39,412 bases of DNA. It comes from a virus. The notes beneath the pieces are model-generated. The model was given only the letters and a program-made list of their open reading frames with translations. It was not told the DNA's origin and did not search any database. Positions 1,851-39,328 of the stretch are shown piece by piece (positions within the stretch are counted from its first letter, which is position 1; each line of letters opens with the position of its first letter). The translations under genes were made by a program, and so were the position numbers. The stretch covers positions 1-39,412 of IMG/VR virus record IMGVR_UViG_3300038313_000213, one strand, 5' to 3'.

Positions 1851-1927
1851 CTAATCACTCCATGTTGTCTTTTTACTGATACATCGTTATATAATAATTA
1901 GCTCTCAACATATAAAAAATATTGCTT

Positions 1928-2224
1928 TCAATTCTTCGGGTTATACAGCCTGCAACTTTTCAACCCATTTGTGTAATGTGGCCTTGTCTTGCTCGGGTAA
2001 ATTGCATGGACACAAACGTACTTTCCAAGCCTCTCTTTTCCTGCAGGAACATTTGCACTATACCGGCAAGTCGCGCATAGTTCATCATTTGCGTGAATCA
2101 AAACCGTCATAAATGTTTTGCAATGGCTACACGATGTGATTTCCTTGTTCTTTCTGAGGCACTTACACACGTTCGGTTCATTTGTGCGGATTAAGTGCTT
2201 ACAGTCTCCGTAGAAGGTTAGCAT
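1928..2224 (-). CDS. Cys-rich, probably Zn-binding protein
   Basis: Several CxxC/CxH motifs; start uncertain. Confidence 0.55.
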   Translation of the reverse strand: MLTFYGDCKHLIRTNEPNVCKCLRKNKEITSCSHCKTFMTVLIHANDELCATCRYSANVPAGKERLGKYVCVHAIYPSKTRPHYTNGLKSCRLYNPKN

Positions 2225-2292
2225 TAAAAAGAGAATGTGTTAATTATATTTAAATCATTTGTTAAAAAGAGAAAAATAAAAAAATAAGTTGG

Positions 2293-2493
2293 TTATCTCG
2301 AATCGTGTTTGTATACCGCGTATTTCCCTTTTTTAACTTCCACGACTCTTATAGACACGTCGTATCCCTTGTAATGATTTCTATACAGTCCGGCTTCGAC
2401 ATTTGCATCCGGTTTAGATTGCAAATGTCTTGAAACCGAACGATATTTTTTTCCAGATATTGTTTTAAAATCCGGTACATCTGAACCACATAT
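2293..2493 (-). CDS. Small basic protein (ATA start or frameshifted), paralogue of 1662..1850; not in the ORF track
   Basis: Open frame ICGSDVPDFKTISGKKY...KPDANVEA...RVVEVKKGKYAVYKHDSR*; GGGGGA RBS 7 nt before ATA; in-frame TAA just upstream. Confidence 0.6.
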   Translation of the reverse strand: MCGSDVPDFKTISGKKYRSVSRHLQSKPDANVEAGLYRNHYKGYDVSIRVVEVKKGKYAVYKHDSR

Positions 2494-2639
2494 GAGTTAA
2501 TCCCCCTAAAATAATTATTTTGTATAGTTATTAGTTTCAATGTTTATAAGTGTTACTGTTTTTCAATAAGCAAAGTTTTAAATACATTGTTGACTATCTT
2601 AAAATAATTAATTTACTAAGTAATGGGGGAAATAAACAA

Positions 2640-2888
2640 ATGACAGACGAACTGAAACTTGCACTTTTCCAGAAAGCGCTTGAAACGATTGACGCTGAAA
2701 TTGAAAAGACAGAATGTGAACTTGCAAGTGGTGTATATAATAAGTTATACGGACTAACCGAACGGCTATTAAACCAGCTTGAAATGTATGACAAAGCGAG
2801 AGAACGGATAGTTAACCGCGTGTGTAGACTCGAAAACGAACCAGCCACGTCCACGAACTTCGGACAGTGGAGGAATCCGAATGATTGA
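2640..2888 (+). CDS. Coiled-coil hypothetical protein, paralogue of 3049..3324
   Basis: ATG after GGGGGAAATAAACAA leader; shares LF..AL, E..LA, NKL and Y..AR with the next ORF. Confidence 0.75.
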   Translation: MTDELKLALFQKALETIDAEIEKTECELASGVYNKLYGLTERLLNQLEMYDKARERIVNRVCRLENEPATSTNFGQWRNPND

Positions 2889-3048
2889 CTTCATTCTTTC
2901 CTTTTTCGAGGCAATTTCAAAGGCAATCGTTGATATTGCCATGATCACTGCGAAATGTGTTAGATTACAATGATCTTTCTAAGTTAATTTTTTATAGGAT
3001 GTTGTACATATTATAACTACTCACTATATACAGGGGGAATAACAAACA

Positions 3049-3324
3049 ATGGCTGATAAACTACCGATTGATTGCTTTTACAACCGCCCGCGTTTCGTGT
3101 TGTTTATGGACGCACTCGATGTATTGAATAAAAAAATATACTCGAAAGAGGCAACGTTAGCGAACGCATGTAAATTGAATAAACTCTCGGACATTGGAAG
3201 TATCACGCGCGAATTAAGCGTTTATTATGAAGCACGTAAGATACTACAAGACGACGTAGATAAACAAATGCACACACTTGACACCTTCCGAGGTTGTTAT
3301 ACCACACCGGAGGAAAAAGAATGA
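3049..3324 (+). CDS. Coiled-coil hypothetical protein
   Basis: GGGGGA RBS, upstream TTTATA box, stop overlaps the nrdD start. Confidence 0.75.
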   Translation: MADKLPIDCFYNRPRFVLFMDALDVLNKKIYSKEATLANACKLNKLSDIGSITRELSVYYEARKILQDDVDKQMHTLDTFRGCYTTPEEKE

Positions 3325-5597
3325 TCGACGTGACCGGCACCGAAGGCGTAAGTTCTTCTATGGCAATTACAGAGGCTTTACCCGCAGTTAGAAACACCGA
3401 CGGATTCAAGACAGAGTGGAACAGAACAAAGATCATAAACATGATCGTGAAAGAAACGAAACTATGTGAGATATTCTATAGCAAACCTGCCGCGACATAC
3501 GAAGAAGCGGAGGCAATTGCAAGAGAAACCGAAAACATAGTCCTGAAAATGCGGAGAGATTTTCTTTCAGGCCCGCTTATCCGTGAAATTGTCAACACTG
3601 TACTTATTGAACGCGGTCATCCAGAATGGAGAAATTGCATGACCAGAGTAGGCGTTTCAGTCCATGACGCGTTCCAGATTGATTCAGGATATGGATTTGA
3701 GGCGAAGGACAACGCGAACCAGCTTGATAACGCGGAGACAAGCCACAAGAGGAAGGCAGACAAGCTAAGTAAAGAGCAGAACCTTTTACTTATACCAAAT
3801 GAAGTTTCAGAATTACATCTCAGTGGAGAGCTCCACATTCACGATTTAGAGTACTTCGGTACAAGGCCATTTTGCCAAGACTGGGACTTAAGGTATTTCC
3901 TCTATTACGGCCTTATGCCAGACGGAGTAGGGAAACAGTCAAGCATAGCAGGACCAGCAAAGAAAGCCGAAGTAGCTTTTCTTCACGCAGTAAAAGCAAT
4001 GGGAAGCGCACAGACTAACTTTGCAGGTGGACAGGGATTCTATAACTTCCTTACGTTCATGGCTCCTTACCTTGTGGGAAAGACAGAAGAAGAGATTGAA
4101 CAGCTTATGCAGATGTTTGTTTATGAAATGATGCAAATGATGTGTGCAAGAGGGGGCCAGACCGTTTTCAGTTCTGTACAGCTTTCGCCAGGAGTCCCTA
4201 AGTTGTGGAGAGACAAACCAATTGTAGCAAAGGGGCATATTTACGACGGTGACAATTACCACGTAGAATGTACTTACGGGAAGCTCGAAAGGGAAGTGAG
4301 GCTGGCATTCAAAGCTTTAATGACAGTCATGCTTAAAGGGGACCACGAAGGAAAGCCTTTCTTTTTCCCGAAACCCGAAATAAGCATAGAACCTGATTTC
4401 ATGCAGGAAGATGAACTATTCAATGCAATGAATCCAGATGTGCCGACTTACAGAGAGCTGTACAGAATGGCGTTTGCGCTTGCTGCAAAGTTTGGAACAC
4501 CTTACTTTGATAATCAACTCCCTGCTTATCGTGGCGCGGGGGATGGGATTTCATGCTATCAGTGCTGCGCGTATCAGTTTTCGGCAAATCCAACCGATGA
4601 CATGGAATTTGACGATAAGTTATATTTCAGAAACGGAAAGCATTTCTCTATGGGGTCTTGGATGGTAATGAGTTTAAACTGTCCGAGGGCTGCATACAAA
4701 GCAGAGCATGACGACAAGAAACTCTTTGAAGAATTAAAATCTCTGATGTGTAGCGCAATCGTGGTATTCCGAACGAAGCGCGAATGGATGGAAAGGCTTA
4801 TAGCTGCAAATAGAATTCCTTTCGCAAGTCAACGACCCAAAGACCCGAATACCGGAAAGCTGGGAGAAACGGCGGTTGATTTCGATGCGCTGGTATATAC
4901 TATCGGGATTATCGGAATAAATGAAATGGTACAGTATCATACCGGATACCAGATACACGAATCCGACGACGCTTACAAGCTTGCGATCAGGGCAATGCTT
5001 GAAATGAAAATGTACGCCAAGGAATTGTCGCACAAATATAACATGGAAATTGCACTTGCCCGAACACCTGCAGAAACGACGGCTCAGAGGTTTGCAGTAT
5101 CTGACTTAATGCATGATGAGTATAGAGAGAAGGCAATGCAAGTGATAAAAGGAGATGTTGACAAAGCACTTGAACACATAAGCGAAACAAAAGACCTACC
5201 GGTTTACTACACGAACGGAACGCACTTAGCACCCGGAGCGAGTGTGACAATTACAGAGAGAATCCAGAAAGAACAAATATTTTTCCCGATTGTAGATGGT
5301 GGAAATATAATGCATATCTGGATGAATGAAAAAGTACCGGATGTAGATGGATTAATGGATTTCGGTATGAGAATTGCAAAGAATACGCAGGTTGGGTACT
5401 TTGCATTTACGAGAGATATGACAATGTGTCTCGACGAGGGGTACATGTCGAACGGGCTGCAGGAAAAATGTCCTAAGTGTGGATCTGGAAACGTTCAGCA
5501 CCTTTCAAGAATTACGGGATACCTGCAGAATGTAGAAGGCTGGAACGAAGGAAAAAAGCAGGAATTGAAAGATAGAGCGAGGTATGACGTGGCATGA
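3321..5597 (+). CDS. nrdD: Anaerobic (class III) ribonucleoside-triphosphate reductase with N-terminal ATP cone
   Basis: ATP cone (WNRTKI...GPLIREIV), HIHDL, FCQD, YQCCAY, RTPAE, C-terminal C..C/CPKCG Zn site and SRITGYL glycyl-radical motif; start moved to ATG 3321 (ATGA overlap). Confidence 0.97.
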   Translation: MIDVTGTEGVSSSMAITEALPAVRNTDGFKTEWNRTKIINMIVKETKLCEIFYSKPAATYEEAEAIARETENIVLKMRRDFLSGPLIREIVNTVLIERGHPEWRNCMTRVGVSVHDAFQIDSGYGFEAKDNANQLDNAETSHKRKADKLSKEQNLLLIPNEVSELHLSGELHIHDLEYFGTRPFCQDWDLRYFLYYGLMPDGVGKQSSIAGPAKKAEVAFLHAVKAMGSAQTNFAGGQGFYNFLTFMAPYLVGKTEEEIEQLMQMFVYEMMQMMCARGGQTVFSSVQLSPGVPKLWRDKPIVAKGHIYDGDNYHVECTYGKLEREVRLAFKALMTVMLKGDHEGKPFFFPKPEISIEPDFMQEDELFNAMNPDVPTYRELYRMAFALAAKFGTPYFDNQLPAYRGAGDGISCYQCCAYQFSANPTDDMEFDDKLYFRNGKHFSMGSWMVMSLNCPRAAYKAEHDDKKLFEELKSLMCSAIVVFRTKREWMERLIAANRIPFASQRPKDPNTGKLGETAVDFDALVYTIGIIGINEMVQYHTGYQIHESDDAYKLAIRAMLEMKMYAKELSHKYNMEIALARTPAETTAQRFAVSDLMHDEYREKAMQVIKGDVDKALEHISETKDLPVYYTNGTHLAPGASVTITERIQKEQIFFPIVDGGNIMHIWMNEKVPDVDGLMDFGMRIAKNTQVGYFAFTRDMTMCLDEGYMSNGLQEKCPKCGSGNVQHLSRITGYLQNVEGWNEGKKQELKDRARYDVA

Positions 5598-8527: not shown

Positions 8528-8734
8528 ATGTTTAAATTAACACCGGAAGAAATCAAAGAAATGGAAACAAGTATTGACTACTTTGAAAAAGATACACTGA
8601 AATGTGAATCACTTACTGAATCTGGATGTTTTGTAAGGGATCTGTTCATAAACGGTCATGATTGTAGGATATGTTTCATAATTTCGATGGTTGAAGAAGA
8701 CGAAGATGATGGAGAAGACACCGAAGAGGAGTAA
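8528..8734 (+). CDS. Small acidic Cys-containing protein
   Basis: GAGGG RBS, CxxC, acidic tail; abuts tnpA. Confidence 0.6.
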   Translation: MFKLTPEEIKEMETSIDYFEKDTLKCESLTESGCFVRDLFINGHDCRICFIISMVEEDEDDGEDTEEE

Positions 8735-8735
8735 A

Positions 8736-9194
8736 ATGTCAGTATACGAACTTGATAAGGGTAGACATTCTGTCTATACCCTTCACTATCATTTGATCTT
8801 AGTAGTGAAGTACAGAAGGAAAGCCTTATACAACGAAATAATACGGGAAAGGCTCAAAGAAATAATCTATGACCTTGAAAGGAAATGGCAAAATGACCCT
8901 AAAATGAAAATAGAAATTGTTGCTCAAGAGCCTGGAGATGATCACCATCACATTCTTTTTAAAGCCACTCCACAAACTGATTTAGTCAAGGTTATAAACA
9001 GTATCAAGGGGGTAACAGCAAGATACCTCAGACAAGAGTTTCCAGATACTAAAAAATTCCTTTGGGGTGATGCTTTCTGGACTCCTTCATACTTCCTTGC
9101 TACGACAGGGCAAGTTTCTCTTGATGTTTTGAAAGCATATGTAGAATCACAGGAAAGGAAAATATCAGAGCGTATTTCAGAAAACATCGAATAA
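8736..9194 (+). CDS. tnpA: IS200/IS605-family HUH (Y1) transposase
   Basis: HSVYTLHYHLILVVKYRRK, DHHHILF (HUH), FWTPSYF, YVESQ; GAGGAG RBS before ATG 8736. Confidence 0.95.
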   Translation: MSVYELDKGRHSVYTLHYHLILVVKYRRKALYNEIIRERLKEIIYDLERKWQNDPKMKIEIVAQEPGDDHHHILFKATPQTDLVKVINSIKGVTARYLRQEFPDTKKFLWGDAFWTPSYFLATTGQVSLDVLKAYVESQERKISERISENIE

Positions 9195-9763: not shown

Positions 9764-12337
9764 TCATCTTGTTTTTGATTTCCGTTTTGTAGTTCGTTTT
9801 CTAGGTGCTTTTCTTTTTGTAGTTGTTTTTCTCTTCTGTGAGACAGTTTCGCCAAAGAAACTATCCATGTTTCCGAGAACGTTGTGTATAGTGCGTTTCA
9901 TTCTATACATGTCGCGTTCGTTTTCAAGTGTTTCTTCGTTCTTCTTTTTCTTCGATGTTTTTATAATCGGGTTCCGTTCGTTTACCCGGATGATCGGTTC
10001 ATTTCCTCCTGCTTTTGATTCTTTCGGATTCACAACGCGCGTACTTCTTCCTATCGTTGGTTTACTCACATTCGGCTTGCTCGTTGTTTCCATGCTCTTG
10101 CTATTCGTTCCTTTACTGGTTGTGCTCTTACTGGTTGTGCTCTTACTGGTTGTGCTCTTACTTGATGCGCTCTTACTTGATGTGCTCTTGCTCGGTGATG
10201 CCCTGCTCGCGCTCTTACTGCCATAAGACGGCTTGCTGAACGTCCCTTTACTTCCACCTTCAGCAATCTTACTACTTTCCATTTTACTTACTTCATTAAC
10301 AATCAATTCCTTCGATGCACTTGGCACGTAAGCCGTCTTAGACCGCTCAGAAATGCCCCTCGAGATTGCCTTAGACACATTAACCTTATCTGACGAGAAT
10401 ATCAGTTCAAGGTCTTTTGCGGTGCTTGCTCCACGAACCACAGTATTCATTTTCGCAGAATCAATACTACCCGTCATTTTTACGATTTCAGCTTTTCCTG
10501 GCAACTTGCCATTTTCCACTATATATTTAACTATAGGAGATTCCAGTATTGAAGGGTTCTTTTGAGCTCCGATTTTAGCATATGCAATTATATCGTCTGC
10601 AATTCCAAGTTTACCGGTCACTTCATACGCCGTGCCTATTTCTATCAAGTCCCTAACGTCCTTTACACGGCCACCGTGCATGAGCTCAATCTTTCCGTCT
10701 TTAAGTGTTGTGCCACCTGCAAACTTCCTGGCGGCCTGCTCCTGCAGCTTCATCATTTTTACTTTACCGGCTTTTATGGATTTTTTGCCTTTGAACCCGT
10801 AAGCAATACCAGATTCCGACCTATAACCAACACCAACTTCGTTTTCAATTGAAACTTTCGATTGCTTGTTTTTCGAGAAAACCTCAACTCCCTTTTCCCA
10901 TACACCATTCATTTTAAATTCGATTTTCGGCGCGCTTGCTTCTCCGGTTATCTGATAATCAATGCCTTCTTTGTATCCTGCCTTATTCGCGTTCTTCCTG
11001 AAATTCGAAACGAATTTATTTGTATTGCTTACAGACAATTCAATGTCTTTCGGGGATCTGGTAAAGAATCCTTTCATTTGCAATTTTTGGGGTACGGATC
11101 CATAAACCTGTATATCCCCTGTTTTCAGCAACCCACTATAACCGGTTATTGTGTCCTTTACAACACCTTTCATATTTTGTGGTATATGCTCGCTCAGGAT
11201 ATCAAGCGATTTCGGCTTTGTAATTGCCTTACGCTGTTTATACGCGGTTTCAGCAATTGTTTTTCCAGACTTAAAATATGTCTGTTCTGTCGGGTTCATT
11301 TGCTTCATTGTCTCTTCAAATGCCCGTGTGTCAGATTTCCGGAATGCCTGTACCTGCTTGCCTTCGATTGCTTCTTTAGACGCTCCAACTGCACCACGTT
11401 TTATTTTACCGGTTTCCTTCGAATATGATATCAAAGGTCTTTCTTTTACATTCAAAGAATACCCCAGTTTAATGTCCCGTACTGCAGCCGCTTCTCCCGG
11501 TGTAACCTCTTGCAATTTCACGGACTTAACTTTAACCGGTGATGATTTAACCCCAGCTTTCGCAACACGTCCAAGCCCCTCCATTGCAACTAGACTTGTT
11601 ACAAACCGCACTGGATCAGTTTCAAATGACTGAACGACCATACCAGCACCTACCGGTATAGACGGCGCAATTATTCGCGGAGACTGTGCGTACCTTTCCG
11701 CTCCATATGCAATGTGTCCGGCAGCGTTCCCGATGTCCGTAACATCGTACAGCCCCTTCACAACTGACCCGACGACTGGTATATTTTCCGTCGCTTGAGT
11801 TGCTTCAACTGCATATGTTTTCTTTTTCAACCACGTTGAAAGGTCTTTTCCGGAATGATTAATTTCTTTAGCAATGTTCGAGTGCTTGAACTCCTTGGTA
11901 GTGCTAAATCTTTCAACTGCTTCCTTTTGTTTATTTGTAAGTTCTCTTCCTGCAGCAATTGACTTTCCAGCACCGTATAGGTTTTTAGCGTAAGAAGCAA
12001 GGCTTTGTTTATTGTTTTTGGTATTGCCAAAATTCTTTACCTGACTTATAATGCTCCGTGGTTGTCCCACGCTTGCACCCGTAGCAGCAATAGTTACGTT
12101 GCCTGCAGAATCACGCGAAAAGAAATTAGTAGTCTGTCTTTTCGCTTCTTCAATCTTCCTGCTTTGCTCTACTGCAGCAGCGCGTTTCGCTTCCTGCTCC
12201 CTTGCGTATCTGGACCCTGTAGATCCACCTACTATATCTCCTCTTGCGTCCCTGGAAGCTGTGTGTTTCGCGGCGTATCCACTAGCGGCATCAGATACAC
12301 TTACGTGAGTTTTCCCGCTACCATCGACATACGCCAT
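9764..12337 (-). CDS. 857-aa basic protein with a central AbiEii/MenT-like nucleotidyltransferase domain and S/T/K-rich tail; last gene of the structural operon
   Basis: VYGS...RSPKDIE, KGVEVF, EQAARKF and RVKDVRDL motifs; K/R-rich C terminus; coupled to 12342..12584. CDS is certain, domain call is inference. Confidence 0.7.
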   Translation of the reverse strand: MAYVDGSGKTHVSVSDAASGYAAKHTASRDARGDIVGGSTGSRYAREQEAKRAAAVEQSRKIEEAKRQTTNFFSRDSAGNVTIAATGASVGQPRSIISQVKNFGNTKNNKQSLASYAKNLYGAGKSIAAGRELTNKQKEAVERFSTTKEFKHSNIAKEINHSGKDLSTWLKKKTYAVEATQATENIPVVGSVVKGLYDVTDIGNAAGHIAYGAERYAQSPRIIAPSIPVGAGMVVQSFETDPVRFVTSLVAMEGLGRVAKAGVKSSPVKVKSVKLQEVTPGEAAAVRDIKLGYSLNVKERPLISYSKETGKIKRGAVGASKEAIEGKQVQAFRKSDTRAFEETMKQMNPTEQTYFKSGKTIAETAYKQRKAITKPKSLDILSEHIPQNMKGVVKDTITGYSGLLKTGDIQVYGSVPQKLQMKGFFTRSPKDIELSVSNTNKFVSNFRKNANKAGYKEGIDYQITGEASAPKIEFKMNGVWEKGVEVFSKNKQSKVSIENEVGVGYRSESGIAYGFKGKKSIKAGKVKMMKLQEQAARKFAGGTTLKDGKIELMHGGRVKDVRDLIEIGTAYEVTGKLGIADDIIAYAKIGAQKNPSILESPIVKYIVENGKLPGKAEIVKMTGSIDSAKMNTVVRGASTAKDLELIFSSDKVNVSKAISRGISERSKTAYVPSASKELIVNEVSKMESSKIAEGGSKGTFSKPSYGSKSASRASPSKSTSSKSASSKSTTSKSTTSKSTTSKGTNSKSMETTSKPNVSKPTIGRSTRVVNPKESKAGGNEPIIRVNERNPIIKTSKKKKNEETLENERDMYRMKRTIHNVLGNMDSFFGETVSQKRKTTTKRKAPRKRTTKRKSKTR
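10113..10187. repeat. Five tandem 15-bp repeats encoding KS(T/A)(T/S)S pentapeptides
   Basis: TTACTGGTTGTGCTC x3, TTACTTGATGCGCTC, TTACTTGATGTGCTC. Confidence 0.9.
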
Positions 12338-12341
12338 ACTC

Positions 12342-12584
12342 TCACCTTTTCGATACGCTTATTCTTGCCGACGGTGCGTTTTCTTTTATGAGTTTTACGG
12401 CTTTTGCTTTAGTTGCGGCATCCTTCGCGGAATATTTCAGTGAACCAGTGAAACCATATCCACTGCCTCGCTTTGTAATTGCCCCAAGTGTAGCATTGCT
12501 GACCTTTATTCTTTTCTTTGCAATTACAGCGTCCCGTTTTGTTGCTAACGGGCCATAGTTAAACCTTACGGTAATCAGATACAT
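12342..12584 (-). CDS. Small very basic protein, possible virion DNA-binding protein
   Basis: 80 aa, K/R-rich, GGAGG RBS, own TATA-like box near 12630. Confidence 0.7.
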   Translation of the reverse strand: MYLITVRFNYGPLATKRDAVIAKKRIKVSNATLGAITKRGSGYGFTGSLKYSAKDAATKAKAVKLIKENAPSARISVSKR

Positions 12585-31384: not shown

Positions 31385-31972
31385 GTGAAAGCTGGAGATG
31401 TATTGAAAGTCTTGCACATCTCAAGACCTACATTGTATAGATATGCTGAAGCTGGTTACATCAAAAGAAATAAGCTCCCTAATGGGAAGTACGACTATGT
31501 TGATGAATCCGTGTATGCATTTCTAAATAAAGATGTTAAACGCAAACATGTAATTTATTGCAGGGTTTCGACTTCAAAACAGAAAGCAGATTTGGAAAAT
31601 CAGGTTGAGTTTCTCAAAAGCTGGTCTTTCAACTCAGGCATAAAAATTGATGCAGTCTACAAAGATGTTGCATCTGGCATTTCATTTGAGAAAAGAAAAG
31701 AATTCTTTGAAATGCTTGATGAGATACTTGATTTCAAGGTTGAAACTGTAATAATTGCATACAAAGACCGATTAAGCAGAATAGGGTTTGAGTTGTTTTC
31801 AAACTTGTTTGCTAAGTTCGGGACAAAAATAATAGTTGTTTCAGAAGCAGGAAATAAGAAATTAGATTCAGAAGAAATCTTTGAGGAAATAATTTCTTTG
31901 TTGCACTGCTACAGCATGAAGCACTACAGCAAACGAAAAACCCCAAAATCATTGGAAATCGAGGTGGAATAA
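31385..31972 (+). CDS. tnpA: IS607-family serine transposase
   Basis: N-terminal HTH, IYCRVST (catalytic Ser), DVASG, YKDRLSR. Confidence 0.95.
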   Translation: MKAGDVLKVLHISRPTLYRYAEAGYIKRNKLPNGKYDYVDESVYAFLNKDVKRKHVIYCRVSTSKQKADLENQVEFLKSWSFNSGIKIDAVYKDVASGISFEKRKEFFEMLDEILDFKVETVIIAYKDRLSRIGFELFSNLFAKFGTKIIVVSEAGNKKLDSEEIFEEIISLLHCYSMKHYSKRKTPKSLEIEVE

Positions 31973-31973
31973 C

Positions 31974-33209
31974 ATGGCACTTGTGACTAGAACTGAACAA
32001 ATTCAATTTAAATCTGAAACTATTTCAGCTCTAGCTCACGCTTCCAAAAACCTATACAATGCAGGAAACTACCTAATGAGACAAAGATTCTTTGAGAATG
32101 ATAGGATCTACAAGGAGACAGGAAAGAAAGGTGAAGGAATTTGGTACAAGCAGCTTTACCCAATGTTGAAAGACACAGAGGACTACAAAGCTTTACCAGC
32201 TCAAACCTCACAGCAGGTTTTAAAGCTACTGGAGAAGAGCTGGAAAGCCTTCTTCATGGCTTCCAAAGCCTTTGCTAAGTCACCTGAGAAATTCTTAGGA
32301 AAACCAAAGCCTCCAAAATATAAAAACAAAGATGGGGAACACATCTTGATTTTCACTAACCAACAGTGCAAAATCAAAGACGGTATCTTGAAGTTTCCGA
32401 AGATTGCAGATCTTGAATTAAAAACAAGACTCAAAGACATTGATCTTAGAGAAGTTAGAATAATTCCAAATGCAAATAAGTACACCTGTGAAATTGTCTA
32501 CAATAAGACAGTCACTGATAATGAAATCAACTCTAACAGAGTTCTAGGCATTGATCTCGGTGTTCGTAACATTGTAACTATTGCAAACAACTTTGGAGCA
32601 AAACCAATTGTTGTTAAGGGCAACACTGCAAACAGCATGAATCAGTACTACAACAAAATAAGAGCTGAATTACAGAGTAAATACGATTTGCAGGGAATTA
32701 GAACAGGTAGCAAGAAAACAAAACTAGATTGGAAGCGTAACAATAAGGTTAAAGATTATTTCCACAAGCTAAGTAAACGAATTGTTGACTATGCAGCAGC
32801 TAACAACGTAAAAACCATAATCATTGGTAAAAATGAGAACTGGAAACAAGAAGTTAATATAGGTAAGAAGCTTAATCAGAAATTCGTAATGCTTCCATTT
32901 GCAAAGCTCATAGAAATGATTCAGTACAAGGCACAGGAAAAGAGCATAGAAGTAATACTTCAGGAAGAAAGTCATACTTCAAAGTGCAGCTTCTTAGATC
33001 TTGAACCAATTGAGCACAGAGAGAAATACATAGGAAAGAGGATCAAAAGAGGAATTTTCAGAAGTGGTAAAGGAATTCTGATTAATGCAGACGTAAACGG
33101 AGCATTGAACATAATCAGGAAAGCAACTCCAAAAGCATTTGCAGACGGAGTAGAGGGTGTAGGGTTACACCCAAAGAGATGTTTAATAGCATCTTTTGAA
33201 TATATTTGA
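31974..33209 (+). CDS. tnpB: TnpB RNA-guided nuclease (IS607-associated)
   Basis: LGIDLG, EESHTSK, NADVNGALNI RuvC motifs; lacks a full Zn finger. Confidence 0.93.
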   Translation: MALVTRTEQIQFKSETISALAHASKNLYNAGNYLMRQRFFENDRIYKETGKKGEGIWYKQLYPMLKDTEDYKALPAQTSQQVLKLLEKSWKAFFMASKAFAKSPEKFLGKPKPPKYKNKDGEHILIFTNQQCKIKDGILKFPKIADLELKTRLKDIDLREVRIIPNANKYTCEIVYNKTVTDNEINSNRVLGIDLGVRNIVTIANNFGAKPIVVKGNTANSMNQYYNKIRAELQSKYDLQGIRTGSKKTKLDWKRNNKVKDYFHKLSKRIVDYAAANNVKTIIIGKNENWKQEVNIGKKLNQKFVMLPFAKLIEMIQYKAQEKSIEVILQEESHTSKCSFLDLEPIEHREKYIGKRIKRGIFRSGKGILINADVNGALNIIRKATPKAFADGVEGVGLHPKRCLIASFEYI

Positions 33210-33870: not shown

Positions 33871-33948
33871 GAACTTTTATATAGTATTGGGGTGTACATA
33901 GTAAATAAATTAAATTAAAAACGTTCAATGTTTTTTGGGGGAAAATCA

Positions 33949-34398
33949 ATGAACGAAATAGACGTGAACAAATCAAAAGAATTTTTGTTGTCTTTCAGGA
34001 TAGGAACGCCATTAAGCAAGGTGAAAGCGCATTATAACAACTACATTAAAAACAGATCCGAAAAAGATACACTCGAATGCAATTACAGAAACAGCCGCAC
34101 GAAAAAATACACTAAAGAAATCCGCACGGTAATGAAGAAGCGCATTGCATATATTTTTGGGGGAGAATGTGCTATATGTGGCAATCCCGAGAATTTGGAG
34201 ATTCATCACATAATACCCCGCGCAAGTGGGGGCACAAATGATATTGCGAATCTTATACCACTTTGCCATGAGTGCCATTGCAGCATTCATAAAATGGCAG
34301 AGATACGCGGCAAAAAGACATATGAAGAGAAGTTCAATCAGGTTCTAAATCAGAATGTAGAATTTTGTAATTGCCTAGTGGGTGGGGAATGTGCTTAA
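33949..34398 (+). CDS. HNH endonuclease
   Basis: CAICG...EIHHIIP..GGTN...NL..LCHECH; GGGGGA RBS before ATG 33949. Confidence 0.9.
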   Translation: MNEIDVNKSKEFLLSFRIGTPLSKVKAHYNNYIKNRSEKDTLECNYRNSRTKKYTKEIRTVMKKRIAYIFGGECAICGNPENLEIHHIIPRASGGTNDIANLIPLCHECHCSIHKMAEIRGKKTYEEKFNQVLNQNVEFCNCLVGGECA

Positions 34399-35809
34399 TC
34401 AGAAAGACATAAGAGAACACTATAAACGTCCTGAAATTGTCGAGGCAATTACAAGGATTTCAGCTGATGGTAATTTCAGCAGGGCCGGAATGAAATTTAC
34501 TCCTTGTGCTTATGTAGACAGGGAAACAGGAGAGCTCAAAGATTCAATGGACTGGTATAATCTCAGACCTGGCAACAGAAGAACGAAGAAAAAAATTGAT
34601 ATGTCAAAGACCAAAGATTACATTAATGCGGTGACCGAGTGCAGGACTTTGTATTGGACATTGAATGTCTTTGGAAAGGAAATATACGATGTCGATTATA
34701 GACAAGTTGACAAAGCAGAAGGGCCGATGTTAAGCAGGGTCCACACAGTCGGGTACACTCTTGGAATTGACATAGACAAAGAGCATGGTTGCGATATTCA
34801 TTCTCCTGCAGTAAAAGAAGCCGTGGAAGATATGGCACAATACTTTACAAACATTCTTCGTGAACACTTACCGAATTCCGTTTACGTTCTGTATTCAGGC
34901 GGTGGGATATATGTAATGTTGCACCATAAAGCATTTGAAAAGTATTTCGACAGGTTCAGAGATTCAGAAGAATGGGATATGATGTTACTTACCTTCTTAG
35001 ATGCCTTTGATTGTCTCATAGGAGACATGCGAGAGTCTTTCTTTAAGGAGTTTCCACAACATAAAGGTAAAGTTAAGCCTGACCAACTGAACGGCTCTCA
35101 GAGAGTCTTTAAGACGCTTTACAGTGTGCATAAGAGTTTAGATTATGCGGTAGTTCCTTTGGATGTGGACAATATCAAGGTAGACTTTAATGCGGCTACA
35201 ATTCCATTGTCAAGCTCTGTAATTGCTATGGGAAATGAGTGGTATTCAAAATGGGACGATGGGACAGAATTTCTTAACAAAGTGTTTAAGCCTTATCTCG
35301 AAAATTCATACAAAAATAGAAGATCTGCAATAAGCAGAATGGATGGAAGAGAAGTTGAGATATCCGAAACTCCGATCGGTTATGAAAATTGGGCTCCTTG
35401 CATGAAAAACTTGTTTGAGTTGGAAGATTGCGGAGAAGGGGCAACCCGTGCACTAGCTGTATTCTGTTCATACTTAGGGCAAATGGGGATAGAAGAGGAA
35501 GAAGCTTATCAGTGGTTTAACCTGCTTGCGGATAGATGGAACGCAAGAAAAAGTAATTTATTCGAAAGTTATTATAGAAGTATGAAGGTTCCGACATGCG
35601 AACGTTTGAACGCCATTGACAACGTGGGATTCCCGAAAGGCGTTTCTTTGCGGAGTCTTTGCGTTTGTGAACCGGATGACAGATGTCTTAAAGTGCCGTC
35701 TCCGTTGTATTATTCCGATGCAGTTGCAGAGAAAAAACGACAGGAAAGTAAAGCAGAAAGGAAAATTGACTATAAACCAGTAATCAACATTCGAAAGAAA
35801 AATAATTGA
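34382..35809 (+). CDS. Archaeo-eukaryotic primase, PriS catalytic domain fused to a PriL-like Fe-S domain
   Basis: GIDID, YSGGGI, QRVFK..YS.H; C-terminal APCM...PTC...C.C...C Cys set; alternative GTG start at 34391. Confidence 0.8.
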   Translation: MGNVLNQKDIREHYKRPEIVEAITRISADGNFSRAGMKFTPCAYVDRETGELKDSMDWYNLRPGNRRTKKKIDMSKTKDYINAVTECRTLYWTLNVFGKEIYDVDYRQVDKAEGPMLSRVHTVGYTLGIDIDKEHGCDIHSPAVKEAVEDMAQYFTNILREHLPNSVYVLYSGGGIYVMLHHKAFEKYFDRFRDSEEWDMMLLTFLDAFDCLIGDMRESFFKEFPQHKGKVKPDQLNGSQRVFKTLYSVHKSLDYAVVPLDVDNIKVDFNAATIPLSSSVIAMGNEWYSKWDDGTEFLNKVFKPYLENSYKNRRSAISRMDGREVEISETPIGYENWAPCMKNLFELEDCGEGATRALAVFCSYLGQMGIEEEEAYQWFNLLADRWNARKSNLFESYYRSMKVPTCERLNAIDNVGFPKGVSLRSLCVCEPDDRCLKVPSPLYYSDAVAEKKRQESKAERKIDYKPVINIRKKNN

Positions 35810-38066: not shown

Positions 38067-38230
38067 TTCTATATCGATGATGTCTTGTCAACTACCCCAC
38101 GCTAAAGCTGTGGGGCTTGCGTTTCTATGTCTTAGTTTCCTAAGCAGAACACAATAGGCTGATTGACGACAGCCCTAGAAGCTATATTTTTAGCCGCATT
38201 GAAATCAGCATTTTCCGTATGTCCACATTC
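38067..38230 (-). ncRNA. Predicted TnpB reRNA with flank-derived guide AAGACATCATCGATAT...
   Basis: Established TnpB biology: the reRNA spans the tnpB 3' end and right end and takes its guide from the flank; 5' boundary is approximate. Confidence 0.5.
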
Positions 38231-39328
38231 AAGGCAAACGAAAGATGCCTGATTCTTTCTGTTCTTTTTGTCGATATAACCACAAACAGAACACTCTCTT
38301 GAAGTATTTCGAGGATCAATAGGTATTACAGGAACTCCTAACAATTTTGCTTTGTATTCTATGAAGTTCCTTAATTCAAGAAAAGCCCACTTTCCAATTG
38401 ATTCTCTAACAGCTTTTGAAACCGTTACACTCTCTCTAATGCCTGAAAGATCTTCCAGAGCAATAGCTCGATTTGTGTCTTTAGCTGTTTGTACTATTTT
38501 CTTAGAAATACAATGATTAGTATCTTTTTTGAATCTTCTTTCTTTTCCACTAATTTTTCTCAGATGTTTCTTTGCGGACTTTGTACCTACTGATTGCAGG
38601 ACAGATTTTACTTTCGCGTATTTCTGCCTGACTTTGGTACATTTTTCACCGGAATAATTTTCACCATCTGATGTTGTAGCCAGATTAACAATACCCAAGT
38701 CCACACCTAATACACCATCTGGGAGGATTGGTTCTGCATCTGGAAGATCTACTACTATCATTAGATAGAAAGTTCCATTTTTGTAGATAAGATCAGCCTG
38801 CCCTCTGACTCTATTAGCTTCCAGCTTTCGGTATTCACCGTATTGGATACCAACCTCTATTCTACCATCTAATGTAAGGATAGATATTACATCGGCTGAC
38901 CTATATGACAGAATTCTCTGATCATAGACAATAGCACCATGTGGATCAAATTCATGAAGTGTGTTTCTGTCTACTTTATAGGATTCAGCAACTTTACCGA
39001 CTGCTCTAACTGTCATTTGAGCAGATAATCCGTATTTTTCTCTTATTTCATAATAGAGTTCTTTCTGAATTCCAACCTTACCGAATAACTTTTTCTTGAA
39101 AGCAAAAACAGAAATAAAATTACATGCTTCATTGAATTTTTCCATAGTCTTTAATAACTTATCATGTTGCTCTTTATCAGTTATCAGTTTAGACTTTACG
39201 GTTAGAAGCATGTTATACACCTTTGCTATAGAGTATATGATTCTATAGTATTTATACATTTGTGCCTTGTGTTAAGTTGACGGAATTCCTCCCTGTGCTA
39301 AAGCATCAGGGCTTCCTTCCTTCTGACC
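38087..39328 (-). mobile_element. tnpB-only IS200/IS605-family element (IS1341 type), inserted 3' of TCAC
   Basis: LE hairpin 39291..39311 with guide GAAG matches TCAC at 39332..39329; RE hairpin 38095..38115 with guide CAAG matches terminal TGAC at 38087, following IS608 guide-pairing rules. Confidence 0.9.
38132..39211 (-). CDS. tnpB: TnpB RNA-guided nuclease, apparently intact
   Basis: LGVDLG, IALEDL, NADFNAAKNI, CSVCG/CLECG Zn finger; start probably ATG 39211 (track gives 39259). Confidence 0.95.
   Translation of the reverse strand: MLLTVKSKLITDKEQHDKLLKTMEKFNEACNFISVFAFKKKLFGKVGIQKELYYEIREKYGLSAQMTVRAVGKVAESYKVDRNTLHEFDPHGAIVYDQRILSYRSADVISILTLDGRIEVGIQYGEYRKLEANRVRGQADLIYKNGTFYLMIVVDLPDAEPILPDGVLGVDLGIVNLATTSDGENYSGEKCTKVRQKYAKVKSVLQSVGTKSAKKHLRKISGKERRFKKDTNHCISKKIVQTAKDTNRAIALEDLSGIRESVTVSKAVRESIGKWAFLELRNFIEYKAKLLGVPVIPIDPRNTSRECSVCGYIDKKNRKNQASFVCLECGHTENADFNAAKNIASRAVVNQPIVFCLGN

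Follow-up and report, generated by a model that had tools for sequence, protein, structure and literature searches.

A putative nucleotidyltransferase module inside a giant basic protein of a probable archaeal spindle-shaped virus

What is the function of a giant, very basic protein that carries, in its middle, what looks like a toxin-type nucleotidyltransferase, and what would a virus use it for? The question is raised by an open reading frame (ORF) of 857 amino acids (aa) at positions 9764..12337 of the window, by which we mean the whole 39.4-kb IMG/VR virus record IMGVR_UViG_3300038313_000213 (39,412 nucleotides, nt). The ORF is an open frame on the minus strand, as are all parts of the protein given below, closes a minus-strand gene block as its final gene, and contributes 154 lysine and arginine against 83 aspartate and glutamate residues to its product. 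A first-pass annotation of the locus had proposed that it contains an AbiEii/DUF1814/MenT-like nucleotidyltransferase domain. The answer we favour, with some confidence and considerable room for doubt, is that the ORF encodes a modular protein with a Pol-beta nucleotidyltransferase that has a complete catalytic set, that the 3’ end of an RNA is the likeliest acceptor and that the constant ends of the protein tether the enzyme to the particle or to the genome. We infer the catalytic activity, the RNA acceptor and the association with the virion from motifs, fold neighbours and gene position.

Catalytic motifs and predicted fold

The short motifs picked out by the first-pass annotation are all present between nt 10628 and 11110, namely VYGS (aa 411-414), R427-S-P-K, D431-I-E433, KGVEVF (aa 482-487), EQAARKF (aa 533-539) and RVKDVRDL (aa 557-564). 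Motifs I and II (11030..11113) read IQVYG413S414, followed after a spacer of 16 residues by D431-I-E433, with R427 at position -4 from D431. The third acidic residue, E485, lies on a strand encoded at 10874..10903, and motif III (E533, Q534, R537, K538) and motif IV (R557-x-K559-D560-x-x-D563) together occupy 10640..10753.

When 1.84 billion representative proteins were searched exhaustively with phmmer, 86 relatives of the giant protein came up, none of them with an explanatory name. A scan of IMG/VR for further loci added one locus only, and among longer relatives sought by profile there was no bridge protein with a name or a Pfam annotation. All conservation counts given here are based on an alignment of 42 homologues (alignment A2) with identities down to 22%. 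G413 and S414 are each conserved in 40 of 40 sequences, R427 and D431 each in 41 of 41. Position 433 is acidic in all sequences (34 glutamate, 7 aspartate) and so is position 485 (36 glutamate, 6 aspartate), while E533, R557 and K559 are invariant (42/42 each) and Q534, R537, K538, D560 and D563 are each retained in 41/42. The best-conserved positions of the alignment are exactly the motif residues, and as judged from these sequences the pattern goes beyond chance; the motifs first noticed in a single protein are thereby seen to be conserved in its homologues.

Dy et al. (2014, PMC3985639) describe DUF1814/AbiEii proteins by a motif hG[GS], a long spacer to DhD with an arginine inside motif II, a lysine in motif III and a +DxxD pentad, and report that motifs III and IV are exclusive to DUF1814 and that the motif II arginine is missing from the other Pol-beta proteins aligned there, poly(A) polymerases included. 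All four motifs were found in the giant protein. The spacing of 18 residues from G to D equals that from G49 to D67 in AbiEii, the arginine at -4 has the position of R63 relative to D67, and the 22 residues from K538 to D560 equal the spacing from K189 to D211 in MenT3. Genuine AbiEii sequences from Methanosarcinaceae show the same local motif layout, with a spacer that is one residue shorter. With the DUF1814/AbiEii/MenT proteins (PF08843; S. agalactiae AbiEii, M. tuberculosis MenT1-4, H. pylori JHP933) the domain shares the predicted Pol-beta fold, a helical second lobe, motif I with a long spacer to motif II, the Arg four positions ahead of the first Asp, the lysine of motif III, the +DxxD pentad of motif IV and spacings near those of AbiEii and MenT3. 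It differs from these toxins in having an extra beta-rich and helical subdomain ahead of the enzyme and, mostly, Glu as the second residue of motif II. Moreover, the toxins are proteins of 200-330 aa encoded beside an antitoxin, whereas the domain studied here is found inside archaeal virus proteins of 570-2600 aa, for which no matching antitoxin was found.

An AlphaFold2 model of aa 260-640, built on the homologue alignment, reached a predicted local distance difference test score (pLDDT) of 90.3 and a predicted template modelling score of 0.89. The globular core comprises aa 265-640 (10418..11545) and combines the two-lobed nucleotidyltransferase with one beta-rich and one helical subdomain; structure matches place the transferase at aa ~379-614 (10496..11203). 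In the model, D431 and E433 flank and lie on a strand of aa 432-436, and E485 lies on a strand of aa 479-488. The predicted structure shows the core alpha-beta-alpha-beta-alpha-beta fold of the Pol-beta superfamily together with hG[GS], [DE]h[DE]h and a third carboxylate on a neighbouring strand. All PDB matches listed by Foldseek were Pol-beta-superfamily proteins, the best one being a putative nucleotidyltransferase from H. pylori (4ok0, E 1.3e-3), which we take to be the DUF1814 protein JHP933. Exhaustive VIA structure alignment against 48,161 chains gave scores of 6.2 for MenT1, 5.9-6.5 over ~180 residues for MenT3 and 5.5 for MenT4; these matches span both lobes of the domain, and the top matches are mostly members of the Pol-beta superfamily. 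In the ESM Atlas, two AbiEii clusters were matched with template modelling (TM) scores of 0.62 and 0.52 (target-normalised), and the first-listed match was a cluster of giant-virus poly(A) polymerases with a TM score of 0.40. A Pol-beta-like fold, on which the first-pass reading depended, is accordingly predicted with high confidence by the model and by both structure searches.

A side observation concerns the helix, beta-hairpin and start of the next helix at aa 522-565 (nt 10640-10774), with the sequence RKFAGGTTLKDGKIELMHGGRVKDV. This segment bears a weak likeness to SUI1/YciH translation factors (TIGR01158, E 0.0027) and is the sole library match of the giant protein, PHROGs having given no informative one. 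One homologue carries the JGI name eIF-1/SUI1, and the same segment also resembles a stretch of ribosomal uS12 (GGRVKDL). These likenesses are probably local convergence.

An exchangeable module between constant ends

The modular architecture is seen most directly by comparison with a closely related virus, L008, which shares with the window the gene order ATPase, adhesin, genes for proteins of 126, 211, 202 and 80 aa, giant gene, glutaredoxin and NrdD. The giant protein of L008 (P0012, 709 aa) matches the window protein over aa 1-~260 and the last ~40 aa only. On the DNA level the two viruses are collinear with ~80% identity on both sides of a stretch in which nothing can be aligned; the collinearity reaches aa 250 (nt 11587) and resumes at aa 819 (nt 9883). 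The intervening cassette (9884..11586, aa ~251-818) has no DNA similarity in the syntenic L008, with flanks that are 80-84% identical. A census of modules among the relatives showed the enzyme core in 77 of them, behind varied N-termini, and the first 60 residues without the core in 18. The core-bearing proteins span 570-2600 aa and the domain is always embedded; a clearly complete, stand-alone form of toxin size was not seen among the relatives. From the swap in L008 and the census (77 versus 18) it follows that the middle enzyme module is cargo that is exchangeable between constant protein ends. The first-pass annotation had likened the N-terminal flank to polymorphic toxins, and the polymorphic architecture of constant part and exchangeable enzymatic module is borne out by this cassette swap inside the gene.

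With MuF-type and other phage-borne polymorphic toxins and with enzyme-carrying virion proteins the giant protein shares constant ends, a swapped enzymatic module and a position among structural genes. It differs from them in that the module occupies a central position rather than the C-terminus, and in that the virus is probably of the spindle-shaped type and not tailed. No sequence relation to polymorphic toxins was found: a language-model search with the N-terminal region gave sub-threshold leads only, among them a phage cluster bearing PT-TG (score 0.84). Nor was an immunity gene found that co-varies with the module, as the sole tightly linked small gene stays constant.

This small gene (12342..12584, minus strand) lies only 4 nt ahead of the giant ORF and encodes a very basic protein of 80 aa (18 lysine and arginine versus 3 aspartate and glutamate), and in six loci a similar small basic gene immediately precedes the giant gene. 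The first-pass annotation had suggested that it might be an antitoxin for the enzyme. That suggestion does not hold up well, since the 80-aa protein is 93% identical in L008 despite the missing enzyme module there; because the gene does not co-vary with the module, a dedicated antitoxin role is unlikely. No antitoxin, PADLOC or other family was matched by the 80-aa protein, and loci of the Archaeoglobaceae type carry a different upstream protein with one predicted membrane segment. A complex prediction of the 80-aa protein with aa 1-640 scored 0.26 against a mark of 0.32, a value that counts neither for nor against binding. The protein may be a partner of the constant part of the giant protein or may bind nucleic acid. 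It consists of two similar halves (FNYGP..TKRDA and GYGF..LKYSAKDA) and recalls small DNA-binding virion proteins of spindle viruses.

Regarding the remaining parts of the giant protein, the full-length model contains one globular module (aa ~265-640), an N-terminal flank that is partly helical and was modelled poorly, and a C-terminal third that is disordered except for one conserved helix (aa 799-813). The N-terminal constant region (aa 1-260, 11558..12337) is mostly helical or of low confidence in the model and starts with a tag of ~60 aa (12152-12337), which is what the 18 relatives without the enzyme core have in common. A moderately hydrophobic segment rich in Gly, Ala and Val lies at aa 186-262 (11552..11782; pLDDT <50 at aa 186-239 and 253-261). 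The hydrophobic segment noted at first pass is therefore present, but it is not a clear transmembrane helix, as all windows of 19 residues stay below a Kyte-Doolittle mean of 1.6. Downstream of the core a disordered linker rich in Ser, Thr and Lys (aa 690-775, 10013..10270) contains the repeats that had been described as KSTTS; they are real and consist of SKSTT encoded by a tandem unit of 15 nt in 5.1 copies (nt 10113-10189). The conserved C-terminal helix and the motif R-x-I-x-N-x-L-G-x-M-D-S-F-F-G (together aa 797-829, 9851..9949) are both retained in relatives without the enzyme module. The Lys/Arg-rich tail (aa 830-857, 9767..9850), likewise pointed out before, is present with 14 lysine or arginine among the final 28 residues.

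The virus, its hosts and the gene neighbourhood

The window encodes an integrase, anaerobic ribonucleotide reductase genes, a thymidylate-synthase-like gene, a UvrD-type helicase and several IS200/IS605/IS607 elements. The minus-strand block ending in the giant gene comprises genes for two proteins of 85-89 aa with two hydrophobic helices each, several multi-pass membrane proteins, an ATPase of 308 aa that hits PHROG 5484 (E 2e-10) and a 799-aa protein that has a CarboxypepD_reg domain and three hydrophobic segments, one N-terminal and two C-terminal. Spindle-shaped (fusellovirus-like) viruses of archaea are marked by a small hydrophobic capsid protein with two helices, a DnaA-like ATPase of the PHROG 5484 type and an integrase; profile comparison of the window with known capsid proteins of spindle viruses gave no match. 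The virus is probably spindle-shaped and temperate and probably infects methanogens of the Methanosarcina type. Homologues of the core are found in Methanosarcina sp. UBA289, a Methanosarcinaceae archaeon, an Archaeoglobaceae archaeon and an uncultured archaeon, those of Methanosarcina and Methanosarcinaceae being located on long contigs (392 and 436 kb). Their neighbours, in viruses and proviruses, always include small two-helix proteins, membrane proteins and large adhesin-like proteins, and an ATPase of ~310 aa was also seen. A reading as a tape-measure protein or another component of tailed phages was rejected, as none of the ORFs scanned matched a family of terminases, portals or tail genes.

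In a library of viral structures only two matches had an E value <0.001, an unnamed entry (1.6e-6) and a 1125-aa protein of a Nitrosopumilus spindle-shaped virus (1.3e-5). These two, A0A5P9U643 and the Nitrosopumilus virus protein A0A514K2U2, are, like the giant protein, large, and were aligned to it over 467-500 columns; the global superposition with the Nitrosopumilus virus protein is however poor (TM 0.21). Likeness to A0A514K2U2 and A0A5P9U643 was undetectable on the sequence level, and tblastn of the giant protein against a phage collection found nothing.

Several further features were noted in the window and its relatives. Three transposable elements lie in the window at 8691-9194 (plus strand), 31385-33209 (plus) and 38132-39259 (minus): an IS200-type Y1 transposase just downstream of the giant gene, an IS607-like pair of resolvase and TnpB, and another TnpB. 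The related virus L001 carries an IS200/TnpB pair elsewhere, between ATPase and adhesin. At 33928-35809 (plus strand) a 475-aa ORF without Pfam or PHROG match begins inside an HNH endonuclease gene; an HNH gene with an adjoining large ORF often signals a terminase in tailed phages, which would sit oddly with a spindle virus. The homologue of the giant gene in a Methanosarcinaceae genome (L006, 6820-12635) is broken into at least 6 consecutive ORFs on the same strand (563, 344, 321, 188, 303 and 169 aa) and could reflect a decaying provirus or assembly errors. A related 15-kb contig (L003) encodes at 1852-4641 a second giant and very basic protein (929 aa, 190 lysine and arginine, Pfam DUF3560), separated from the downstream enzyme-carrying gene by ~1.6 kb with three short ORFs and without counterpart in the window. 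The Methanosarcina sp. UBA289 provirus (L004, 6611-12574) has a version of 1987 aa with the enzyme core at aa ~1125-1491 and a long N-terminal extension without family match. In the legend to Figure 5 of PMC9796341, a gene labelled ‘NT, tRNA nucleotidyltransferase’ is listed for maps of methanogen viruses that include predicted spindle-shaped contigs.

Proposed function and alternatives

In the mechanism we propose, G413-S414, D431, E433 and E485 would bind metal and nucleotide, and R427, K538 and K559-D560-x-x-D563 would add the features typical of DUF1814/AbiEii/MenT enzymes. A nucleoside triphosphate would be bound with Mg2+ and the nucleoside monophosphate moved to a hydroxyl acceptor, with no template. 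The 3’ end of an RNA appears to be the likeliest acceptor because both nearest structural neighbours act there, MenT on tRNA and the viral poly(A) polymerases on mRNA. The constant ends and the Lys/Arg-rich tail may anchor the enzyme to the particle or the genome, and its action might fall early in infection, with RNA of the host or of the virus as the target.

A number of observations weigh against this reading. The only link to the virion is the position of the gene, and the N-terminal region of the protein has poor model quality. Motif II is D-I-E in 34/41 members of the family and D-x-D in 7/41, while a D69E exchange inactivated AbiEii (PMC3985639). Pfam, PADLOC and NCBIfam are silent on the giant protein, the 42 homologues gave no Pfam match to a nucleotidyltransferase above chance level, and the trimmed core (42 sequences) reached a probability of 0.3% when compared by hhalign with 121 genuine AbiEii sequences, whose profile is narrow (Neff 3). 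Finally, the nearest neighbours in a language-model search (score 0.95) were phage clusters in which 11-22% of the members carry PF19244, the family of giant-virus and poxvirus poly(A) polymerases.

Other searches for a formal link likewise came back empty. PF08843 was unmatched by the giant protein, by the 42 homologues and by the six-frame translation of the window even at E 10, and Pfam showed no real domains in 42 core-bearing proteins, 22 tag-sharing proteins and four giant relatives. Sequence searches of the PDB with the protein, with alignment A2 (low-complexity matches only) and with a domain alignment (A8) found nothing, and hmmsearch of the core against the 121 AbiEii proteins gave weak matches only, with the wrong region aligned. 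The failure of profiles is tempered by the divergence of DUF1814 itself, as an AbiEii query (P0097) finds by phmmer only an AbiGII structure and neither MenT nor JHP933. Since motifs and spacing match but links by hidden Markov model (HMM) or profile fail, we regard the domain as a new, unannotated family that resembles DUF1814 enzymes and stands outside PF08843. The AbiEii/DUF1814/MenT likeness given at first pass is supported by the four published motifs and by the predicted Pol-beta-like fold, but finds no support with respect to formal membership.

Among other explanations, we consider it unlikely, yet worth serious attention, that the domain is a Pol-beta nucleotidyltransferase without specific DUF1814 kinship, whose nearest relatives are viral poly(A)-polymerase-like enzymes and which tails transcripts of the virus or the host rather than blocking tRNAs. 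The giant-virus and poxvirus enzymes (Megavirus and Mimivirus polyadenylate synthase, vaccinia VP55; PF19244) are also virus-encoded RNA 3’-end transferases with a Pol-beta fold, and beside the first-listed ESM Atlas match and the language-model neighbours mentioned above, one homologue reaches PF19244 at E 0.069. However, PF19244 is unmatched in the window even at E 10, and the poly(A) polymerase matches extend over the catalytic lobe and the segment preceding it (model residues 69-322), leaving the helical C-terminal part of the second lobe uncovered. The hosts are archaeal, and the DUF1814-type Arg, Lys and +DxxD are present, with the motif II Arg and motifs III-IV, the former missing from other aligned Pol-beta proteins and the latter exclusive to DUF1814 according to PMC3985639, invariant or nearly so in the homologues (41/42 to all). 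A transfer of nucleotides to proteins or small molecules, as known for LnuA, ANT(2’’) and minimal transferases, for example to modify a surface or defence component of the host, we judge to be improbable. The small enzymes of this kind match part of the domain only (130-151 residues), the strong basic charge suits a nucleic-acid partner, and the conserved residues of motifs III and IV belong to the DUF1814 definition (PMC3985639).

Even less probable in our view is a purely structural protein that condenses the genome or sets the length of the particle, with the transferase fold as an idle scaffold. The location of the giant gene within a block of structural genes, the extreme basic charge, the long disordered regions, the Lys/Arg-rich tail and the fact that the related virus L008 does without the module would all fit such a role. 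Against it, the catalytic residues are invariant or conservatively replaced down to 22% identity, and idle enzyme folds normally lose them. We give the least credence to a toxin-antitoxin or abortive-infection pair with the giant protein as toxin and the 80-aa protein as antitoxin: the small gene is closely linked and recurs upstream in the six loci, and antitoxin genes precede AbiEii and MenT toxin genes, but its near-identity in the module-less L008, its lack of antitoxin or PADLOC family matches, the different upstream protein in Archaeoglobaceae-type loci and the absence of a clearly complete toxin-sized domain among the relatives all argue the other way.

DUF1814/MenT enzymes are known as bacterial toxins and as anti-phage effectors of abortive infection, while the look-alike described here serves archaeal viruses themselves. 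Its catalytic set is intact, and it forms part of a giant protein encoded amid structural genes, in which it is exchanged as a cassette. The case also illustrates that motif and fold evidence can reveal such enzymes where HMM libraries stay silent. If the enzyme is active, it would represent a new, so far unannotated nucleotidyltransferase family of ~80 members and offer a first way into the question of how the RNA or translation of methanogens is manipulated by their spindle-shaped viruses, and the natural pair of viruses with and without the module would lend itself to testing the role of the latter. A bolder version, which we think rather unlikely as a whole, is that spindle viruses of methanogens and Archaeoglobi package a MenT-like RNA 3’-end nucleotidyltransferase that is held on the genome by its basic tail, delivered on entry and transiently disables tRNAs or defence RNAs of the host, with relatives swapping the cargo. 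If true, archaeal viruses without a tail would have their first described case of an enzymatic effector system in the virion, and it would be based on a toxin fold that cells otherwise use against viruses.

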